Source: Candidatus Woesearchaeota archaeon
Lineage (GTDB): Archaea; Nanobdellota; Nanobdellia; Woesearchaeales; GW2011-AR9
Length of the DNA: 64,000 bases
Direction: 5' to 3'
Assembly (NCBI GenBank): GCA_018696595.1
Contig: JABHQW010000008.1
Coordinates: 320,001-384,000 of the forward strand
The position numbers and the translations under genes were made by a program. Below are positions 18,954 through 60,455 of this stretch, in pieces (the stretch's first letter is position 1; each line of letters starts with the position of its first letter). Below the pieces are notes generated by a model, which was given only the letters and a program-made list of their open reading frames with translations, had not been told where the DNA came from and did no database searches.

Positions 18954-19279
18954 ATAGGTAGGGCGGAATAAGCCGCCTTTTGTCAAACCCAAACAATTAA
19001 CAATGTAATTGCGATGGTTTGTTTTAGCATTCTACTAAGCGTTGAACCAACTTGCACTGGTTAGTATTCGCCGTTTCATCGCTCCCATACAACATAGTCA
19101 TGGGGTTAACTCATTGCTTTCTCAAGCAACTTCGCCACTATCATCCCGATGTATGGACGTGTCGTTTCTGAGCCATGGACAGCCATTTCTGACTCTCACT
19201 TCCGTGAGTAACCTTTCATAGTGGGCGGACTTTCCTAAGCGAATAAATTCACCTTCTGCTAAATACCGCTCCTACCTAT
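18954..19279 (-). ncRNA. rnpB: RNase P RNA (archaeal, type A-like)
   Basis: P1 ataggtaggagcgg/ccgccctacctat; CR-I aggaaagtccgcccac; cagaaacgacacg; gatgaaacggc; agtgcaag; gcttagtagaatgc; CR-V acaaaaggcggcttat; BRE-TATA about 25 nt upstream. Confidence 0.93.
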
Positions 19280-23109: not shown

Positions 23110-24168
23110 ATGAAAGAAATAATTTTAAATTGGTTAGGGACAATTCCTTATGGTAATTATTTACAAAATAAATACCTTTTTGCTATTTTGATTTTGGTAA
23201 CGTTTACAATTGGTGCTAAACTATTGTTGTTTATTTTTGAGAAATATTTCCAAAGATGGGCCAAGAAAACTAAAACTGAAATTGATGATATTATTTTTGA
23301 CAGAACTAAAAAGCCAGCATTTTATTTCTTGTTAGCAATTGGGTTGAAGTTAGCAATATTACATTTAGAAGTTAATGGGATCGTAAATTCTTTAGTTAAT
23401 ACACTTATGGCAATCGTGTTTGTATTTATTATTGCTAAAGTTGTTGATACAGTTATTGATATCTGGGGAGAAACTTTTGCTAAGAAAACTAAAAGTAAGA
23501 TTGATGACGTTTTATTACCTTTATTTCATAAATTTACAAAAGTATTATTTGTGATCATTGCAATTCTATGGGTCTTAAAAATATGGGGCATTGATATTGG
23601 CCCATATTTGGCAGGGGCAGGAATTTTGGGAATAGTTATTGGGTTTGCTTTACAAGATTCTCTAAAAAACATTCTTGGTGGAATCACTTTACTTCTAGAC
23701 AAAACTTTTGAGATTGGGGATAAAGTTAAGATTGAATCTGGTAAAGTGGGAACAATTCATGATATTGGCTTAAGAAGTACTAAATTAATTACTTATGATA
23801 ATGAAGTGATTTACATCCCTAATGGATATTTAGCAAACTCTCAAGTACAGAATTATACCAGACCAAATCCAAAAGTTCGTGTAGGTATAGATTTTGGTGT
23901 TGAGTACGGCAGCGATGTTGCTAAAGTAACTGAATTAATTGTGGGGACTTTGAAAGGAACGGGTGGTCTTTTATCTGATCCTCTTCCAGCTGTACACTTT
24001 TTGTCTATGGGTGATTTTGCTTTAAACTTTAAAGCATATTTCTGGGTAGAGAAATGGGGCGATGCTTACAGTAAGAAGTTGGAAGTTACTGAAGCGATTT
24101 ATAATGCTTTGAACAAAGCTAAAATTGGAATACCTTTCCCAACACAAACTATTGAGCTAAAGAAGTAA
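23110..24168 (+). CDS. mscS: Small-conductance mechanosensitive channel
   Basis: GIVIGFALQDSLKNILGG, FEIGDKV, G.IHDIGLRST, IPN..LAN. Confidence 0.92.
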   Translation: MKEIILNWLGTIPYGNYLQNKYLFAILILVTFTIGAKLLLFIFEKYFQRWAKKTKTEIDDIIFDRTKKPAFYFLLAIGLKLAILHLEVNGIVNSLVNTLMAIVFVFIIAKVVDTVIDIWGETFAKKTKSKIDDVLLPLFHKFTKVLFVIIAILWVLKIWGIDIGPYLAGAGILGIVIGFALQDSLKNILGGITLLLDKTFEIGDKVKIESGKVGTIHDIGLRSTKLITYDNEVIYIPNGYLANSQVQNYTRPNPKVRVGIDFGVEYGSDVAKVTELIVGTLKGTGGLLSDPLPAVHFLSMGDFALNFKAYFWVEKWGDAYSKKLEVTEAIYNALNKAKIGIPFPTQTIELKK

Positions 24169-24179
24169 GTTCCTTAGTA

Positions 24180-24252
24180 AAAGCACTACCACCAATGGAG
24201 GCGCATTTTGGAGTGTAACGACAAAATCTCGGGCGCCGTGCCGTAGTGCTTT
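24180..24252 (+). repeat. Hairpin element family, copy E1
   Basis: aaagcactac/gtagtgcttt outer stem; core caccaatggaggcgcattttg...caaaatctcgggcgccgtg. Confidence 0.8.
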
Positions 24253-24306
24253 TAGTTGCTTTAAATAAGCAAATATTTTTATATTCTCTTTCTTTTTATT
24301 CTTATT

Positions 24307-28582: not shown

Positions 28583-28708
28583 AGCAAAAGCATTACCGCC
28601 AATGGAGGCACATTTTGTTCATTTTTTATTTAATGAAAAGCACGAAACAACGTGAAGTGGCTAAAATTAATGGACAAAATCTTAGGTGCCGTGCGTAATG
28701 CTTTTGCT
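28583..28708 (+). repeat. Hairpin element family, copy E2 (expanded loop)
   Basis: 14-bp perfect outer stem agcaaaagcattac/gtaatgcttttgct; core cgccaatggaggcacattttg...caaaatcttaggtgccgtg. Confidence 0.8.
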
Positions 28709-28769: not shown

Positions 28770-29738
28770 TCATTGTCCTAGTGGTGAAGCAACAATTTTA
28801 AGCGGTTGAGTATAAGAGTCAATGTAAGAATAATCAAATTTTACTTGTAAAATTGTTTCATAAGCGTTACTATTGCCAATGTTGTTAGAAGTACAAACAA
28901 TCTTGCCCTGGTTATTTGTTAAACGAACTTTATGATTTAATGGTTTACAGTTTAATGGTGATCCATCATTTAGTGAAACTTCAAACTCAACCACATCTAA
29001 ATCTTTATATTCTAAAGATGCGCCACCACAATTTTGAATGTTTGCCCCATAATCTAAAACTCGGCCACCGCCGTTATTAACAACATTAATTTCAAAGATG
29101 GCTTTATCTCCAATCATATCTACGCCGACATAACTTACTCCTACTGGTGCTCCTTGGCCGCCGCCCATTCCTACATCGTGTGGGATACAAGCTTTCTGTT
29201 CAGAAGTGATTTGATAAAATAAAGGATCAATACAAACTTGCGGATTCGCAGTTGTAGTGTAACGATAACAAGTTAAAAAGTTTAATACTGGATTATATTC
29301 AAAAACATCTGTTGGTAAGTTTACGTTTGGTGAGGTGAACTGAATCACATTAGTTGCTCCTAATGTATTATATACATTTTTTCCTTCCAAAACACCCATG
29401 TTTGCAGCACAAGGGATACTATTTGTAAAACTTCCACTGATTATACTTTTATCAAATCCCGTAACTTGAATATAACAATCAGGAATTTCAATATCATCAT
29501 TTCCTTTATTGTGAACTTCAACCATTGCAATTAATTCATTATCATCATAAATTAAAGCAGGGGGTTGATTTTGAATAATTTGAATTTCTACTCCTTGTGT
29601 TCCAGTTTGAACTGCTGTTAATGCTGCAGCAGTATCTTGTGGTTTTTCTCCTGCTGGAATCGCGCCACCACAAGAACTAAGAAATAAAGCTAGAATCACT
29701 AGTACTGAACATAACGTTAAACTCACACTCTTTTTCAT
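28770..29738 (-). CDS. Putative lipoprotein, paralog of 423-1295
   Basis: True start is the ATG at 29738 (MKKSVSLTLC...LFLSSC, lipobox LSSC); VCIDP, GGQGAPVGV, NNGGGRV; BRE-TATA on the - strand at 29761-29777. Confidence 0.78.
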   Translation of the reverse strand: MKKSVSLTLCSVLVILALFLSSCGGAIPAGEKPQDTAAALTAVQTGTQGVEIQIIQNQPPALIYDDNELIAMVEVHNKGNDDIEIPDCYIQVTGFDKSIISGSFTNSIPCAANMGVLEGKNVYNTLGATNVIQFTSPNVNLPTDVFEYNPVLNFLTCYRYTTTANPQVCIDPLFYQITSEQKACIPHDVGMGGGQGAPVGVSYVGVDMIGDKAIFEINVVNNGGGRVLDYGANIQNCGGASLEYKDLDVVEFEVSLNDGSPLNCKPLNHKVRLTNNQGKIVCTSNNIGNSNAYETILQVKFDYSYIDSYTQPLKIVASPLGQ

Positions 29739-29799
29739 AATTCTAAATAAAAGAAATTGATTATATAAGCTTTTCGCTGTCTTGAACTGAAATTTTAAT

Positions 29800-29979
29800 G
29801 GACTACGTTCGGAATAGAAGACATTTGTATACTGCGTGCCGGCGCGTGGATTTTGTGAGTAGCGCCAAATGAGGCACATTTTTTGACTAAAAGTCAAAAA
29901 ATCTCGGGTGCCGTGTCCTACTCGCAAAATGCGCCTATTGCAGGCAGTATACAAAATAGTGTTATTCCGAACGTAGCCC
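29800..29979. repeat. 180-nt nested near-palindrome: + strand copy E3 (29856-29924) inside the loop of - strand copy E4 (29823-29957), within a further outer stem
   Basis: Stems ggactacgttcggaata/tattccgaacgtagccc; tttgtatactgc/gcagtatacaaa; ggcgc/gcgcc; attttgtgagtag/ctactcgcaaaat; ggcac/gtgcc; attttttgact/agtcaaaaaat. Confidence 0.82.
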
Positions 29980-30046
29980 TCTGCAATGAAAACAATTATA
30001 AAGAGAAGTCTGTTTTTCCTGCTCAGTCAAATGGGAGGATAGCAAA

Positions 30047-30283
30047 ATGGCAAAATTCAAAATATTACACTTTAAAGAAGAATGTATCAGTTGTGGTGCT
30101 TGTGCAGCGATTTGTCCAGAATTCTGGGAAATGGATGGCGAAGGAATGGCACAATTAAAAGAATCTAAACAAGTTGGGGATCATTGGGAGAGAATCATTG
30201 ATACAGAAGATGCACGGTCAAGAAATCAAGAAGCGGTTGATGCTTGTCCAGTTACAGTAATAAAGTTAGAAGAATTAGAATAA
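30047..30283 (+). CDS. Single-cluster ferredoxin
   Basis: CISCGACAAICP and a distal ACP. Confidence 0.9.
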   Translation: MAKFKILHFKEECISCGACAAICPEFWEMDGEGMAQLKESKQVGDHWERIIDTEDARSRNQEAVDACPVTVIKLEELE

Positions 30284-30902: not shown

Positions 30903-32741
30903 ATGGAGAAAAATAAAATGATGGCCAAAAATATATTAACAAGTTTGTTGTTAGGTGTATTGTTTTTAGGTTTGTTTAGTTTTACTGGTTTAGCTAATCC
31001 TCAGGAAAGTTTGTCTGCTGATTTAGCTAATCTGGAAAACAGTTTTGAACAAGCAGAAAGCGAATATCAACAGCTAACAAATGAGTATGCTCAGTTAGAA
31101 GTTAGTAATAAAGAAGAAATTAAAAGTTTACTAAATTCTTTAGTTCTTATTAGAAAATCTACTGAAGATGTTAAAAAAACATCAGTAGCAAAAGAATTTG
31201 ATGCTATTGGTATAGACCAAACATTAAAACTAAAATTTAATGATTTAGTTGTTAAGTCTGACGCATTAATTGTAAAGATTATTTCTTTTGAAGAACAATT
31301 AGTTAAAGATATGAATGCTTTTTTGTTACAAGAATTAACAAGTCAATATGATTCTTTCGTAGAAAAGAAAGAAGAAATTCATAAAAAAATAGTTCTTGAC
31401 GTTTTCTTTTACCTTAAAGAAGCAGAAAAAGGAGAATTAAGCTTTGAAAAAGGAATAGAAACCGTGGATAATGCTGAAATGATTATGGAAATGATTGTTT
31501 CATTACATAAAGAGATTAGTTCTAGTTTAGAAGATGTTTCTGAAGATTTAGCAGAACAAGAAGTTGTAGAGAAAACAGAAGCCTTGGTAACTTTAATGGA
31601 AGGGTATGGTTCTGCAGTTATGGAGTACAAATCACAACTTAATAGCTATGTTTCGCAGATAGTTAATGAAGATGATTTAAACCATGTTCTGGATGACTTC
31701 ACAGTTCTCGCTGAAAACTTAGCAGAAGAATCTTTAAGTTTAAAAGAAGAAGTTGAAACAGCAATAGGAGAAACTGTTGTTGATGAAGAAGTTTTAAATG
31801 GACTTGTTGAAAAAGTTGAGTCTTATCAAGATAATGTGGACGACTTAAGTACAGACTTTGGTTCTTACTTTAACTTAGTTAAGTCTTTTGATGATAAAAC
31901 AGTCTATGGCCATTTTTACTCTTTTTATTACGGAGAAATTAAGGATTTATACGTGCAAGGACAAATGTTGGAGAAATCCTTAGATGAATACATGAATCCA
32001 GTAGATCCAGTAGACCCTGTTGACCCTGTTGACCCAGTAGACCCAGTTGATCCGGAAGATACTGATGCAGACGGTGTTTTAAACGCAGATGACAATTGTC
32101 CTCTAGTTGCGAACGCTGAGCAAGTAGATACAGACGCAGATGGTTTAGGAGATGCTTGTGATAGTGCCGATGGTACAGATCCAGTTGATCCAGTTGATCC
32201 AGATAAGACTTCAGAAGAATTGAAGTATGAAGAATACGATCAGGATTTTGAAAACATCGAAGATGACTACTTTTACTACAAGAAAAAGTATGAAAACGCT
32301 GTAGATGATGACAATGAAAACAAGATTGAGAAATACGAAGACAAGTTAAAAGACCTTGATGAAGACCTTGAGAACTTAGAAGAAGACGTTGAAGATTTAA
32401 TTGAGACTCTTGAAGATGAAGATGAACTTGATGAAAGTTTATTAGATGACTTAGATAAGTTAGATGAAGACATTGAAGATCTAAGAGAAAAAATCGACAA
32501 GGTTCTTAATGGTGACAGTGACTCAGATGGTTACGGAACTTTAAGTACTTTTACTCCTTCAAACAGTGTTGTTGACGACAATGTAGTAATTGAACCATTA
32601 AGCATTCAAGGTTTAACAACTGCAGATTCTGGAGTACAAACAGATGACTGGAGTCAAGTAAGATTCATTGCTTGGGTTATCGGCGGAATCGTAATCTTGT
32701 TAGCTGTAGTGTTATTTTTGTTAGCACTATTGTTGAAGTAA
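30903..32741 (+). CDS. Cell-surface protein: signal peptide, coiled coil, DPV linker, thrombospondin type-3-like Ca-binding repeats, acidic coiled coil, C-terminal TM anchor
   Basis: DTDADGVLNADDNCPLVANAEQVDTDADGLGDACD; FIAWVIGGIVILLAVVLFLLALLLK tail. Confidence 0.8.
   Translation: MEKNKMMAKNILTSLLLGVLFLGLFSFTGLANPQESLSADLANLENSFEQAESEYQQLTNEYAQLEVSNKEEIKSLLNSLVLIRKSTEDVKKTSVAKEFDAIGIDQTLKLKFNDLVVKSDALIVKIISFEEQLVKDMNAFLLQELTSQYDSFVEKKEEIHKKIVLDVFFYLKEAEKGELSFEKGIETVDNAEMIMEMIVSLHKEISSSLEDVSEDLAEQEVVEKTEALVTLMEGYGSAVMEYKSQLNSYVSQIVNEDDLNHVLDDFTVLAENLAEESLSLKEEVETAIGETVVDEEVLNGLVEKVESYQDNVDDLSTDFGSYFNLVKSFDDKTVYGHFYSFYYGEIKDLYVQGQMLEKSLDEYMNPVDPVDPVDPVDPVDPVDPEDTDADGVLNADDNCPLVANAEQVDTDADGLGDACDSADGTDPVDPVDPDKTSEELKYEEYDQDFENIEDDYFYYKKKYENAVDDDNENKIEKYEDKLKDLDEDLENLEEDVEDLIETLEDEDELDESLLDDLDKLDEDIEDLREKIDKVLNGDSDSDGYGTLSTFTPSNSVVDDNVVIEPLSIQGLTTADSGVQTDDWSQVRFIAWVIGGIVILLAVVLFLLALLLK
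31995..32060 (+). repeat. 9-nt coding tandem repeat (DPV)n
   Basis: NPVDPVDPVDPVDPVDPVDPED with synonymous codon variation; a shorter second array lies near 32137. Confidence 0.85.
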
Positions 32742-48874: not shown

Positions 48875-51529
48875 ATGAAAAATACTTTTACTTTTTTTAC
48901 AATTTTCCTATTTGTACTATCTATTGTTCCATTAGCAGCAGCAGCAGATGTTTCTGTTCAAGCTGAATGGTCAGTTAATGGAGAAGCTGCAGGTAAAATA
49001 TTAAATGCTGAAACTGGAGAAGGAACTACTTTCGCAGTGATGGTTAATGCTTTAAATGATAATTTAAACGATTATAACTTCTTTGTTAAAGTTTACGATG
49101 GCAGTTATGATGAGATGGTTAATCCTGGTTGGGAAACTACAAACGTAGAATCTTTCCCTGGCGGAACAACTATGTATACTGTTAATTATAATGCTCCTTT
49201 AACCGAAGGAACTTACTTTATTGTTGCTTCAGCATACTATGCTCAAGAAAACGATGAAGGATTTGATACACTAACATTAATTGTTACAGAAGCTCCTTGT
49301 TTAGATACAGACGATGACGGCGTTTGTGATGAAGATGAAATCTTGGGATGTACAGACACAGATGCAAATAATTACAATCCAAATGCAACTGAAGAAGACG
49401 ACAGTTGTGAATACGATTGTTTAGATTCCGATGGCGATGGTGTTTGTGATGAAGATGAAATCTTAGGGTGTACTGATTCAGAAGCAGAGAATTTTAATCC
49501 AAATGCAACAGAAGAAGATAATAACTGTGAATATGCTTGTACAGATTCTGACAACGATGGTGTTTGTGATGAAGATGATCTTTGTCCAGATGAACCTGGG
49601 CTATTAGATAATAATGGTTGTCCTGAAGAAGTTATTAATGAAGCTCCCATTATTGAAGTTTTTGGAACTAACAAAATTAATGAAATGAGTTCATTAAACT
49701 TAATCGTTGAAATTGAAGATGAGGATATTGTTAACTTAGAAGTTAAGGTTGAAAAATGTGAGATTTATATTTTTGGGCTTTGCTTATTTGCAAGTTACAC
49801 AGATGCTCCTGAAAATTCAGAATTAACTTTTGTTTCTGAAAACAAATATGCTTTTACTTGGACTCCGGATTACCGTTTTGTAAAACATCCTGCAACAGAA
49901 AGATCTATTCGATTAGTTTTTATTGCCGATGACGGAGAAGCAAAAGATTATAATTTACATAAAGTAACTGTTAACGATGTTAATCAATTACCTGTTTTAA
50001 GTTCAGAAGGCGTAGAAGATGTTGATGAAGGAAAAAGCTTTGTTGCTACTTTTACTGCCATTGATGCTGATGAAGAAGACGTCTTGGACTTGGGGATTAT
50101 TTTAATGGGATATGAATTCATGGGTAATGATCTTCCTGATTGGATCTCTATGGAAAGTATTGCAAAGAATACAATTCAATTAACCGTAACTCCTGATTGT
50201 GATAGTGCTGGAGATTACTTCCTTAGATTTACTGCTAACGATGGACTATTCTTGGCGGAACTAATGGAACCATTTACTGTTACCGAAGCTTGTGATGCTC
50301 CAATTCTTGGATGTATGGATGAGTCTGCATTAAACTACAATCCTGAAGCAACCGAAGATGATGAAAGTTGTGAATATACTTGTAGTGATGTGGATAACGA
50401 CGGAGTTTGTGATGAAAATGATCTTTGTCCGCATGAAGTGGGTACTGAGAATAACAAAGGATGTCCTGAAGAACCTGTTGCTGATAATATGGTTCCTGTT
50501 CTAAGAGGATTAATGGATCAATCTGTTTATGCAGAAGAGAAATTAACATTTCAAATTCATGTGACTGATGACAATGATAAAAACATGGACTTAATTGTTG
50601 AAGGACTTCCAGAAGGAGCAGAAGTATTTGCTTCTAATCGGGTTGCACCTTTGCCTTTAAAAAACATCATGCAGAAATTATTTTTGAAAACAGAGTATAA
50701 ACACACTTTTATTTTCAAATGGGTTCCAACAGAAGCACAAGTTGGTGAATACTTAGTAGGATTTACTGCTGACGATGGTTTAGCTAAATCGGAACAAAAG
50801 ACAATCAAAATCACTGTATTAGAACAACCAGTTGAACCTTGTGTTGATACAGATTCTGATGGTATTTGCGACGAAGTTGATCTTTGTCCGTTAGATCCAG
50901 AAGATTTTGATGGTATTGAAGACGAAGATGGTTGTCCTGAAGATGATCCAGTTAACCATGCACCTTTAATCTTATCAAATCCAACTACTGTTGCAACCGA
51001 GAATCATGATTACACTTACCAATTTTTGGCGGAAGATCCAGACGGAGACGAGATAACTGTAACTTTAGTTGACGCTCCTGAAGGGATGACTATGTCTGAA
51101 GATTGGTTAGTTGAATGGATTCCTGAAGATTTAACTAATGGCAAAGTGGCTATTAGTGTAACTGACGGAGAGTTTGTGGTAACACAGAAGTTTACAATTG
51201 GCGTTGCTGAAGCTTACAAGAATGTTAAGCTAGCATCCGTACAATTGGCGGCTGAAGAAGTTGTTGCTGGTGGTTATTTGTCTACTCAAATCAAAGTAGA
51301 AAATAACGGCGAGAAAGATATGGGTGATTTAAAGATTAGTGTGATTGTTCCTGAGCTTGGATTGAAGAAGTCTGTGAGTGAGTTTGACTTGAAACCAGGG
51401 CAAAGTAAGAACAAGAACATTAATCTACAGTTACCTTATTACGCTTACTCTGGTGAGTATCTAGTTAAGGTAAGTGTTAGTAACAGCAATTTCCATGAAC
51501 AAACCTATAGGTTGGTAACAATCTATTAG
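48875..51529 (+). CDS. Large acidic surface protein with Ca-binding DxDxDG/GCTD repeats, cadherin/Ig-like domains and a C-terminal CARDB-like domain
   Basis: Signal peptide; CxDxDxDGVCDEDE.LGCTD..A.NYNP.ATEEDD.CEY repeats; NHAPLI.S.P, EDPDGDEIT, VENNGEKD. Confidence 0.8.
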   Translation: MKNTFTFFTIFLFVLSIVPLAAAADVSVQAEWSVNGEAAGKILNAETGEGTTFAVMVNALNDNLNDYNFFVKVYDGSYDEMVNPGWETTNVESFPGGTTMYTVNYNAPLTEGTYFIVASAYYAQENDEGFDTLTLIVTEAPCLDTDDDGVCDEDEILGCTDTDANNYNPNATEEDDSCEYDCLDSDGDGVCDEDEILGCTDSEAENFNPNATEEDNNCEYACTDSDNDGVCDEDDLCPDEPGLLDNNGCPEEVINEAPIIEVFGTNKINEMSSLNLIVEIEDEDIVNLEVKVEKCEIYIFGLCLFASYTDAPENSELTFVSENKYAFTWTPDYRFVKHPATERSIRLVFIADDGEAKDYNLHKVTVNDVNQLPVLSSEGVEDVDEGKSFVATFTAIDADEEDVLDLGIILMGYEFMGNDLPDWISMESIAKNTIQLTVTPDCDSAGDYFLRFTANDGLFLAELMEPFTVTEACDAPILGCMDESALNYNPEATEDDESCEYTCSDVDNDGVCDENDLCPHEVGTENNKGCPEEPVADNMVPVLRGLMDQSVYAEEKLTFQIHVTDDNDKNMDLIVEGLPEGAEVFASNRVAPLPLKNIMQKLFLKTEYKHTFIFKWVPTEAQVGEYLVGFTADDGLAKSEQKTIKITVLEQPVEPCVDTDSDGICDEVDLCPLDPEDFDGIEDEDGCPEDDPVNHAPLILSNPTTVATENHDYTYQFLAEDPDGDEITVTLVDAPEGMTMSEDWLVEWIPEDLTNGKVAISVTDGEFVVTQKFTIGVAEAYKNVKLASVQLAAEEVVAGGYLSTQIKVENNGEKDMGDLKISVIVPELGLKKSVSEFDLKPGQSKNKNINLQLPYYAYSGEYLVKVSVSNSNFHEQTYRLVTIY
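49298..49630 (+). repeat. 120-nt coding tandem repeat (40-aa GCTD/TSP3-like module)
   Basis: Unit starts at 49298, 49418 and 49538 (third copy diverges); dispersed copies near 50310-50465 and 50839. Confidence 0.85.
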
Positions 51530-60382: not shown

Positions 60383-60455
60383 AGCCCCTGGTGAGAGTTG
60401 CACTCACGGTCTACTGCTTACGAGGCAGTCGCTATAGCTACTAAGCCACAGGGGC
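60383..60455 (-). tRNA. trnT: tRNA-Thr(CGT), non-canonical D and T loops
   Basis: GCCCCTG/CAGGGGC acceptor; ACTGC-CT-CGT-AA-GCAGT; GTGAG-TGCAACT-CTCAC; 73 nt. Confidence 0.9.

Follow-up and report, generated by a model that had tools for sequence, protein, structure and literature searches.

A nested hairpin rod in a Woesearchaeota genome is probably a MITE of an IS5-type family

Genes and features at the locus

We analyzed a stretch of 64,000 nucleotides (the whole of which we call the window) from an archaeal genome of 1.19 Mb (G000; 8 contigs, 97% complete, 32% G+C). Among its features are the archaeal RNase P RNA (18957-19276, - strand, 138.7 bits), a tRNA gene (60383-60455, - strand) and coding tandem repeats in large secreted-type proteins (31995-32210 and 49289-50948), with repeat units of 9 nt (GAYCCAGTW, giving Asp-Pro-Val runs) and of 120 nt (giving acidic Asp/Cys-rich modules of the kind DxDGDGVCDEDE).

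Positions 29800-29979 form a G+C-rich island of about 180 bp between two divergent genes, a lipoprotein-like gene and a ferredoxin gene (product Fer4_15, 1.4e-12). The island itself encodes no ORF. Those ORFs in the list that run across it, the longest of which occupy 28770-29954 (- strand) and 29883-30158 (+ strand), are spurious extensions. For the lipoprotein-like gene, the most likely start is the ATG at 29738, which gives a product beginning MKKSVSL... and having a signal peptide that contains Cys.

The element lies exactly between two BRE/TATA-like blocks (Table 1), both intact, which we take to be the promoters of these genes from their match to the archaeal promoter consensus. The blocks are conserved in G000, G001 and G002, three genomes of one genus. 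In the orthologous spacer of G001 they stand about 20 bp apart with no rod, and the orthologous spacers of G016 and G004 also contain no rod. The same spacer holds an unrelated palindrome (GGGTTTTGAG-TTATGAGTACTCATAA-...-CTCAAAAC) in G002 (L046, G002:C87) and yet another palindrome in G004, and it is a hot spot for palindromic insertions. The copy in the window would have landed between the two divergent core promoters without disrupting either, and its target duplication would since have decayed. The rod might extrude as a cruciform between the two promoters.

The first-pass annotation had described this stretch as a hairpin sitting in the apical loop of an inverted, diverged copy of its own kind, with a third stem wrapped around both. 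The sequence matches that description, and all three layers are present. Both strands fold into a single long rod, with -89.5 kcal/mol on the + strand against -48.2 +/- 4.1 kcal/mol for shuffles (z = -10.1), and -86.8 kcal/mol (z = -11.5) on the - strand. The inner hairpin is matched from 29851 to 29929 by the covariance model of the family described below (E about 1e-25). It consists of a lower stem (TGAGTAG/CTACTCG), an internal loop (CGCCAAATGA / GTGTC), an upper stem (GGCAC-ATTTT / AAAAT-[CTCGG]-GTGCC) and the apical part GACT-AAA-AGTC. Read on the - strand, the outer layer is CAATA-GGCGC-ATTTTG...CAAAAT-CCAC-GCGCC-GGCAC. The nested arrangement is upheld by the fold, by the family model and by homologous outer layers in other genomes.

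Table 1 Features of the rod, its flanking promoter-like blocks and two further family members in the window
Feature	Position	Strand	Remarks
Family member E1, single layer	24178..24254	+	76.7 bits; begins about 10 nt past the upstream stop codon
Family member E2, long-form sub-family	28585..28707	+	68.6 bits; 60-nt apical module
BRE/TATA-like block of lipoprotein-like gene (28773-29738, - strand), GATTATATAAGCTTTTCGCT	29759..29778	-	Conserved across G000, G001 and G002, with two positions changed in G016
Left terminal inverted repeat of putative MITE, GGACTACGTTCGGAATA	29800..29816	.	Pairs with 29963-29979; 5' arm of the third stem of the first-pass annotation
Backbone stem, 5' arm, TTTGTATACTGC	29824..29835	.	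Kept in all nested and all un-nested copies
Outer hairpin core, arm CAAAAT-CCAC-GCGCC-GGCAC (- strand reading)	29836..29855	-	Variant B; alignment of 13 nested copies
Inner hairpin core (E3), 69 nt	29856..29924	+	Covariance model, 83.2 bits
Outer hairpin core, other arm, CTGCAATA-GGCGC-ATTTTG (- strand reading)	29925..29943	-	Same variant in un-nested L097
Backbone stem, 3' arm, GCAGTATACAAA	29944..29955	.	Pairs with 29824-29835
Right terminal inverted repeat of putative MITE, TATTCCGAACGTAGCCC	29963..29979	.	Pairs with 29800-29816; 17-bp stem
BRE/TATA-like block of ferredoxin gene (30047-30283, + strand), AAAACAATTATAAA	29988..30003	+	Conserved in G000, G001 and G002

A hairpin family with a conserved core

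The inner hairpin belongs to a family with about 24 copies in G000, retrieved by a motif search and then with a covariance model (R1) that was built from 14 short copies after that search. All members share one plan. The lower stem varies in sequence and is paired throughout, and the apex is variable. The asymmetric internal loop is invariant (5' CGCCAAWKGA, 3' GTGCC), and the core stem is GGCRC-ATTTT / AAAAT-[5-nt bulge]-GYGCC; in this stem the copies are split 7:7 by a clean double change from G-C to A-T. The model has 26 base pairs, and 16 of them carry compensated changes. Every one of the 24 G000 copies is intergenic. Divergent genes flank seven of them and convergent genes two; the others lie in tandem gene contexts, nine on the strand of the genes and six on the opposite strand, which shows no strand bias. 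Across the 113 genomes of the taxonomic family that we surveyed, 34 contain members (27 of 58 genera), with 1-35 copies each, and related copies are found in public records labelled Woesearchaeota or Nanoarchaeota.

Two further members lie at lower coordinates in the window. In the interval 24166-24254, the first (E1) follows the stop codon of a gene for a 352-aa membrane protein, and several other G000 copies likewise begin 4-10 nt past a stop codon. The second (E2) carries an expanded apical loop, which the first-pass annotation suspected of being a similar nesting event. This suspicion did not hold: the module contains no family motif and, in G000, is confined to other long-form members. 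For the same reason, its location only within long-form members, we ruled it out as an independent mobile insert. E2 looks like a representative of an old long-form sub-family, separate from the rod-type nesting. Model matches of long-form length (109-128 nt), judged by length, occur in G002, G016, G021, G057, G070 and G123, among them genomes of other genera. Across the family, the apex can hold a short loop, a long apical module (there are two kinds) or an inverted core.

The hairpins could be read as functional structured RNAs, in which the core would be a motif that signals processing or protein binding in RNA, the rod a small RNA gene or UTR element, and nesting a way to present the motif on the transcripts of both strands between the divergent genes. 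We regard this as very unlikely. The strong conservation of the internal loop and bulge, the covariation of the stems and the presence in many genera are set against a patchy distribution (0 to 38 copies even within one genus), the lack of any orientation bias relative to flanking genes, and the lack of conserved synteny: we found no shared neighboring genes around copies from six other genomes, two of which have a single copy. Tandem G.A pairs are often possible in the apical loops on inspection of the sequences, but no Rfam family matched any copy, either at the gathering threshold or at E up to 10. The alignment of 13 copies contains about as many G:U pairs (11) as A:C pairs (12), so neither strand is favored. 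The reading draws further weight from the behavior of the two cores in nested copies, where the inner one is canonical throughout and the redundant outer one decays, and from the lack of a core in the IS itself (see below). Nothing favors a classical RNA gene. A K-turn or H/ACA guide RNA, in turn, was ruled out. On inspection of the alignment (A1) the pocket sequence is invariant; its non-bulged strand reads G-U-G-C, with U where an A is essential, so that the internal loop has no G.A/A.G tandem. The bulge is 5 nt long and there is no ACA box.

Terminal inverted repeats and target duplications

The third stem is present as a 17-bp pairing of 29800-29816 with 29963-29979. It does not merely wrap the two inner layers, as the first-pass annotation had it, but corresponds to the terminal inverted repeat (TIR) of a MITE. 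The TIR in the window is homologous to GGCTTCATCCGGAATA, which together with TATTCCGGATGAAGCC bounds the whole rod in fresher copies, and it resembles GGCTCTGTTCGGAATAG, the TIR of the un-nested copy L084. Relative to the family consensus it has changed at three positions, each of them compensated on the opposite arm.

The fresher rods are flanked by perfect 9-bp direct repeats that are different at every site. For instance, we observed TGAGTGCTA, TTAAGGTAA and GAGTTATAA at three copies in G070, TTTTTCTAC and TGTTTATAG at two copies in G002, CTTTTCTAT at G000 C3:284k, ACCTTTTTG at a copy in G018, and TCCATAGGG and others on metagenome contigs. Overall, more than 25 related copies have such 9-bp duplications, including at least 13 un-nested ones. 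Single-layer members show the same organization. In G118 and G042 they are the centers of 135-240-bp elements with TIRs; the 9-bp duplications are clear in G118, and the G042 copy shows one once two contig ends are joined.

The same genomes contain IS copies with related ends. A 990-bp IS in G042 has a 9-bp duplication, shares the TIR of the MITE at 16 of 16 positions (24 of 25 for the left end) and encodes a transposase of the NCBIfam IS5 family (NF033579, 143 bits with a cut-off of 140). The IS in G118 is 994 bp long and also has a 9-bp duplication. The best TIR match is a 920-bp IS with DDE_Tnp_1 in G070 (G070:C48), which has no clean duplication at its own site. Its left end reads GGTCTGTCCAGAA (the TIR), then GGAATAA, then GTATACTG, and is colinear with the MITE TIR plus backbone arm; copies of both kinds, nested and un-nested, have the TIR GGTCTGTCCAGAA, identical to the ends of this IS. 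The transposases of the G070:C48 and G042 types are 298-336 aa long. A de novo TIR search at three further DDE_Tnp_1 loci was informative for L081 only. In size, termini and duplication length, these IS fit the IS903 sub-group of the IS5 family (about 1 kb, GGC termini, 9-bp duplication), which is probably the closest sub-group.

DDE_Tnp_1 was found in G070, G118 and G042, where the copies of the family look recent, and not in G000 or G002. None of these five genomes contains an IS1 (PF03400) or ISL3 (PF01610) transposase, and a search of G000 for a Y1 transposase (PF01797) gave no match. The copy in the window has no recognizable target duplication. Because of this, and because G000 has no IS5-type transposase, we consider it a fossil.

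Taken by homology to the fresher copies, the sequence at 29800-29979 is probably a MITE of an IS5-type family. The elements have TIRs that match those of an autonomous IS; they are small, non-coding and multi-copy, and they vary in presence between relatives. A further usual feature, a cognate transposase in the same genome, is lacking in G000. The TIR match and the duplications are observed in relatives, and mobilization would have occurred in trans: the DDE transposase of an IS5-family element of 0.9-1.0 kb would have moved the whole TIR-bounded unit and generated the 9-bp target duplications. Judged by their sequences, the TIRs are of IS5-family type, the next stem (TTTGTATACTG) likewise comes from the IS end, and the central cores do not come from the IS. 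We found no hairpin core inside the IS5-family IS copies and, conversely, no core-less backbone (GTATACTG, 0-30 nt, CAGTATAC) in any of the 113 genomes.

Nested copies and un-nested alleles

The nested design occurs in at least 16 copies in six genomes and at six distinct metagenome loci. Searching for the inverted-nest pattern gave 12 exact matches in 5 of the 113 genomes (four genera), and further nests outside the exact pattern were G000 C4, G018:C13, G002:C45 and G002:C12. One metagenome scan returned nine nest matches, six of them distinct. G000 itself has four nested copies, with an almost identical outer layer. The nests have much in common. In every one of them the inner element is inverted and the backbone is GTATACTG (GTATTAG in the G070 variant). 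The junction is ATTTT followed by an 8-nt stem (GTGAGCAG, TGGAGTAG, GTAAGCAG and similar), except in G002:C11, where it is 11 nt, and the junction stem ends in AGYAG (AACAG in one metagenome copy). The 113 genomes contain no same-orientation nest. There is no target duplication or other scar at the inner junction; the 9-bp duplication is found only outside the whole TIR-bounded element.

G070 carries a second nested sub-family (L063-L066), with the outer stem GTATTAG and the TIR GGCACTGTAGAAACCCT. All four sightings are at contig ends, and these rods therefore break the assembly.

Palindromes of this kind might be produced by mis-joined reads. Palindromic repeats do break assemblies, and several of the G070 and G042 copies are located at the ends of contigs, but the same architecture recurs with copy-specific substitutions and different flanks in six independently assembled genomes and in metagenome contigs. 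We give an assembly artefact next to no credence.

The first-pass annotation proposed that an un-nested allele should be sought in related genomes. Such alleles exist: in a search of one genome per species we found the un-nested outer element, with TIR plus GTATACTG, a single canonical core and a simple apex, at about 19 archaeal loci, nearly all of them with 9-bp duplications. One of these loci (L097) has exactly the outer variant of the window and an ancestral-type apex. The inner type, with a GAGYAG lower stem, also occurs in stand-alone copies.

We aligned 13 nested copies and distinguished two variants of the outer core. Variant A is canonical (CGCCAATTGA-GGCGC ... GCGCC-GTGC). Variant B, the form in the window, is decayed (CTGCAATA-GGCGC ... 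GCGCC-GGCAC). None of the 13 aligned copies departs from the canonical form in its inner core. The covariance model gives no match to the outer layer in the window on the - strand; the decay of this variant and the 69-nt insert within it account for that. Homologous outer layers score on the opposite strand in G002 (42.4 bits for G002:C10 and 40.3 bits for G002:C11) and in G016 (31.9 bits for G016:C20), and in G002 and G070 the model recognizes variant A on the - strand as belonging to the family. Since these colinear outer layers score as family members, the outer layer of the window was correctly called a diverged member. In the G000 lineage, the outer core would have lost its canonical loop, giving variant B, while the inner core stayed canonical. 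Decay of the outer core beside a conserved inner one is consistent with relaxed constraint on a second, redundant core.

The IS lacks the core, yet the core is conserved more strongly than the transposon ends and stays nearly the same in elements with differing ends. Plain MITE biology does not account for this near-invariance. Together with the decay of the redundant second copy, it suggests a selected structural module carried by the MITEs of these tiny genomes. A more specific proposal, which we put forward tentatively and consider unlikely as a whole, is that the core (CCAAWKGA-GGCRC-ATTTT ... AAAAT-CTNRG-GYGCC-GTGC) would be a functional module in its own right: folded as DNA or RNA, it might be bound by a protein of the host or one associated with the transposase. 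Woesearchaeota IS5-type MITEs would need one intact copy or more, and the apex would be a slot whose modules, a second core among them, pass from element to element through gene conversion or structure-directed insertion.

Comparison with known elements

Like known MITEs of the IS5 family, the rods are short and non-coding, have TIRs that match an autonomous IS in related genomes, are flanked in fresher copies by a duplication of fixed length (9 bp), and are dispersed in intergenic copies that are present or absent between close relatives. Unlike them, they have an interior that does not come from the IS and an asymmetrically looped core that is common to elements with differing ends, and the rod sub-family has this core twice, nested and in opposite orientation.

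Hairpin-forming MITEs are well known in bacteria, for instance Correia/NEMIS of Neisseria, ERIC/IRU and RUP. As in these elements, the whole rod is one stem-loop, lies in intergenic regions near promoters or gene ends, and has many diverged copies. It differs from them in being archaeal (DPANN), in its transposase family and duplication length, and in its nested, duplicated core. We saw no sign of promoter, IHF-site or RNase III functions in the rod family.

REP, BIME and REPIN sequences are likewise small palindromic repeats whose inverted doublets form longer hairpins. However, REPINs are side-by-side doublets without target duplications that depend on a Y1 transposase (RAYT), whereas the rod copies are nested and flanked by TIRs and 9-bp duplications. 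An identity as REP/REPIN with RAYT was ruled out by these duplications and by the absence of PF01797 from G000.

MITEs are abundant in some Woesearchaeota, and a census of prokaryotic MITEs places a Woesearchaea genome among the MITE-richest archaea (PMC11602168). The hairpin family analyzed here is not described in that census (PMC11602168), and we found no description of it, or of a nested inverted double core, in the literature. What appeared to be an RNA rod or a self-targeting hairpin becomes a testable MITE that has a defined nested core, 9-bp duplications and partners in the IS5 family. The result should also aid annotation of DPANN genomes, in which such GC-rich rods create spurious ORF extensions and mimic ncRNA genes.

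Origin of the nested arrangement

From the sequences of the nests, their arrangement is best read as a chimera of single origin that would have spread as one unit. Two MITE sub-families, one with GTATACTG on the outside and one of GAGCAG type on the inside, would have been joined once, at the point where both carry ATTTT/AAAAT, and the product would then have spread across several genera. We favor a single origin and spread as a unit because the junction is near-constant and the orientation and backbone are constant.

The first-pass annotation had suggested that the element targets apical loops in hairpins of its own family. A mobile bare hairpin would, in that case, prefer the single-stranded apex of hairpins like itself, and the nest and the expanded loops would be independent events. 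Other nests do exist, but they are not the product one would expect of recurrent targeting: they share one backbone, one inner lower-stem type (AGYAG, with one AACAG), one orientation and, in all but one, the same junction, without a duplication or insertion scar. Same-orientation nests are missing from the 113 genomes. The apex is clearly a modular slot, and twin-hairpin micro-elements of 57 nt insert into rods of G002; on the other hand, the stand-alone hairpin at G000 C6:246344, which could pass for a mobile bare hairpin, is a decayed MITE with a TIR remnant, and G000 has no Y1/HUH single-strand transposase. Two further points speak for self-targeting. At one orthologous site with a shared lower-stem arm, G000 has the canonical core and G002 a different hairpin. 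In addition, variants A and B each occur both nested and un-nested, so that the nesting state either switched at least twice or passed from one copy to another. On balance, we think it quite improbable that the nests arose by recurrent self-targeting.

A single chimera does not imply a simple history. The A/B variant, the TIR subtype and the nesting state are combined reticulately, and the history is not strictly tree-like. The un-nested variant B at L097 therefore requires at least one reversal, a second insertion or other event, or gene conversion between copies.

Chimeras and insertions into hairpins have been described in other systems. IS1397 and ISKpn1 insert into the loops of REP sequences and offer a comparison for self-targeting. 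Such targeting would be expected to give several independent insertions that vary in junction or orientation, each with a scar; the rod nests have a single junction type (with the single 11-nt variant), one orientation and no scar. Nested plant MITEs are an example of mosaic non-autonomous elements. Tn3-derived TIMEs are mosaic or nested non-autonomous transposons as well (PMC4133298). The rod resembles such elements as a probable chimera of two related elements that would move as one unit. It differs in that the inner element of those transposons retains both its own ends and its target duplication, whereas the inner unit of the rod is the core only, with an 8-bp stem and no scar.

Two nested rods of G002, L034 (G002:C12) and L017 (G002:C45), carry an extra two-hairpin micro-element of 57 nt at about locus position 1585-1645. 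In the outer arm of L034 it sits precisely between CAAAAT and GCGCC, with AT on either side. In L017 the 57-nt insert was seen short of its far junction.

The site G000:C6:246344-246422 shows how such loci change between relatives. It holds a canonical core in G000. At the orthologous locus in G001 (L104), a deletion ending at a second CCAA has left nothing but the left arm ATTTTAAGAGCAGCACCAA, and the locus was thus ruled out as an empty site; absence in a relative does not always mean an empty site. In G002 (L105) the left arm is kept and is followed by a different, 15-bp hairpin with one bulge, which looks like a fold-back copy of its own left side.
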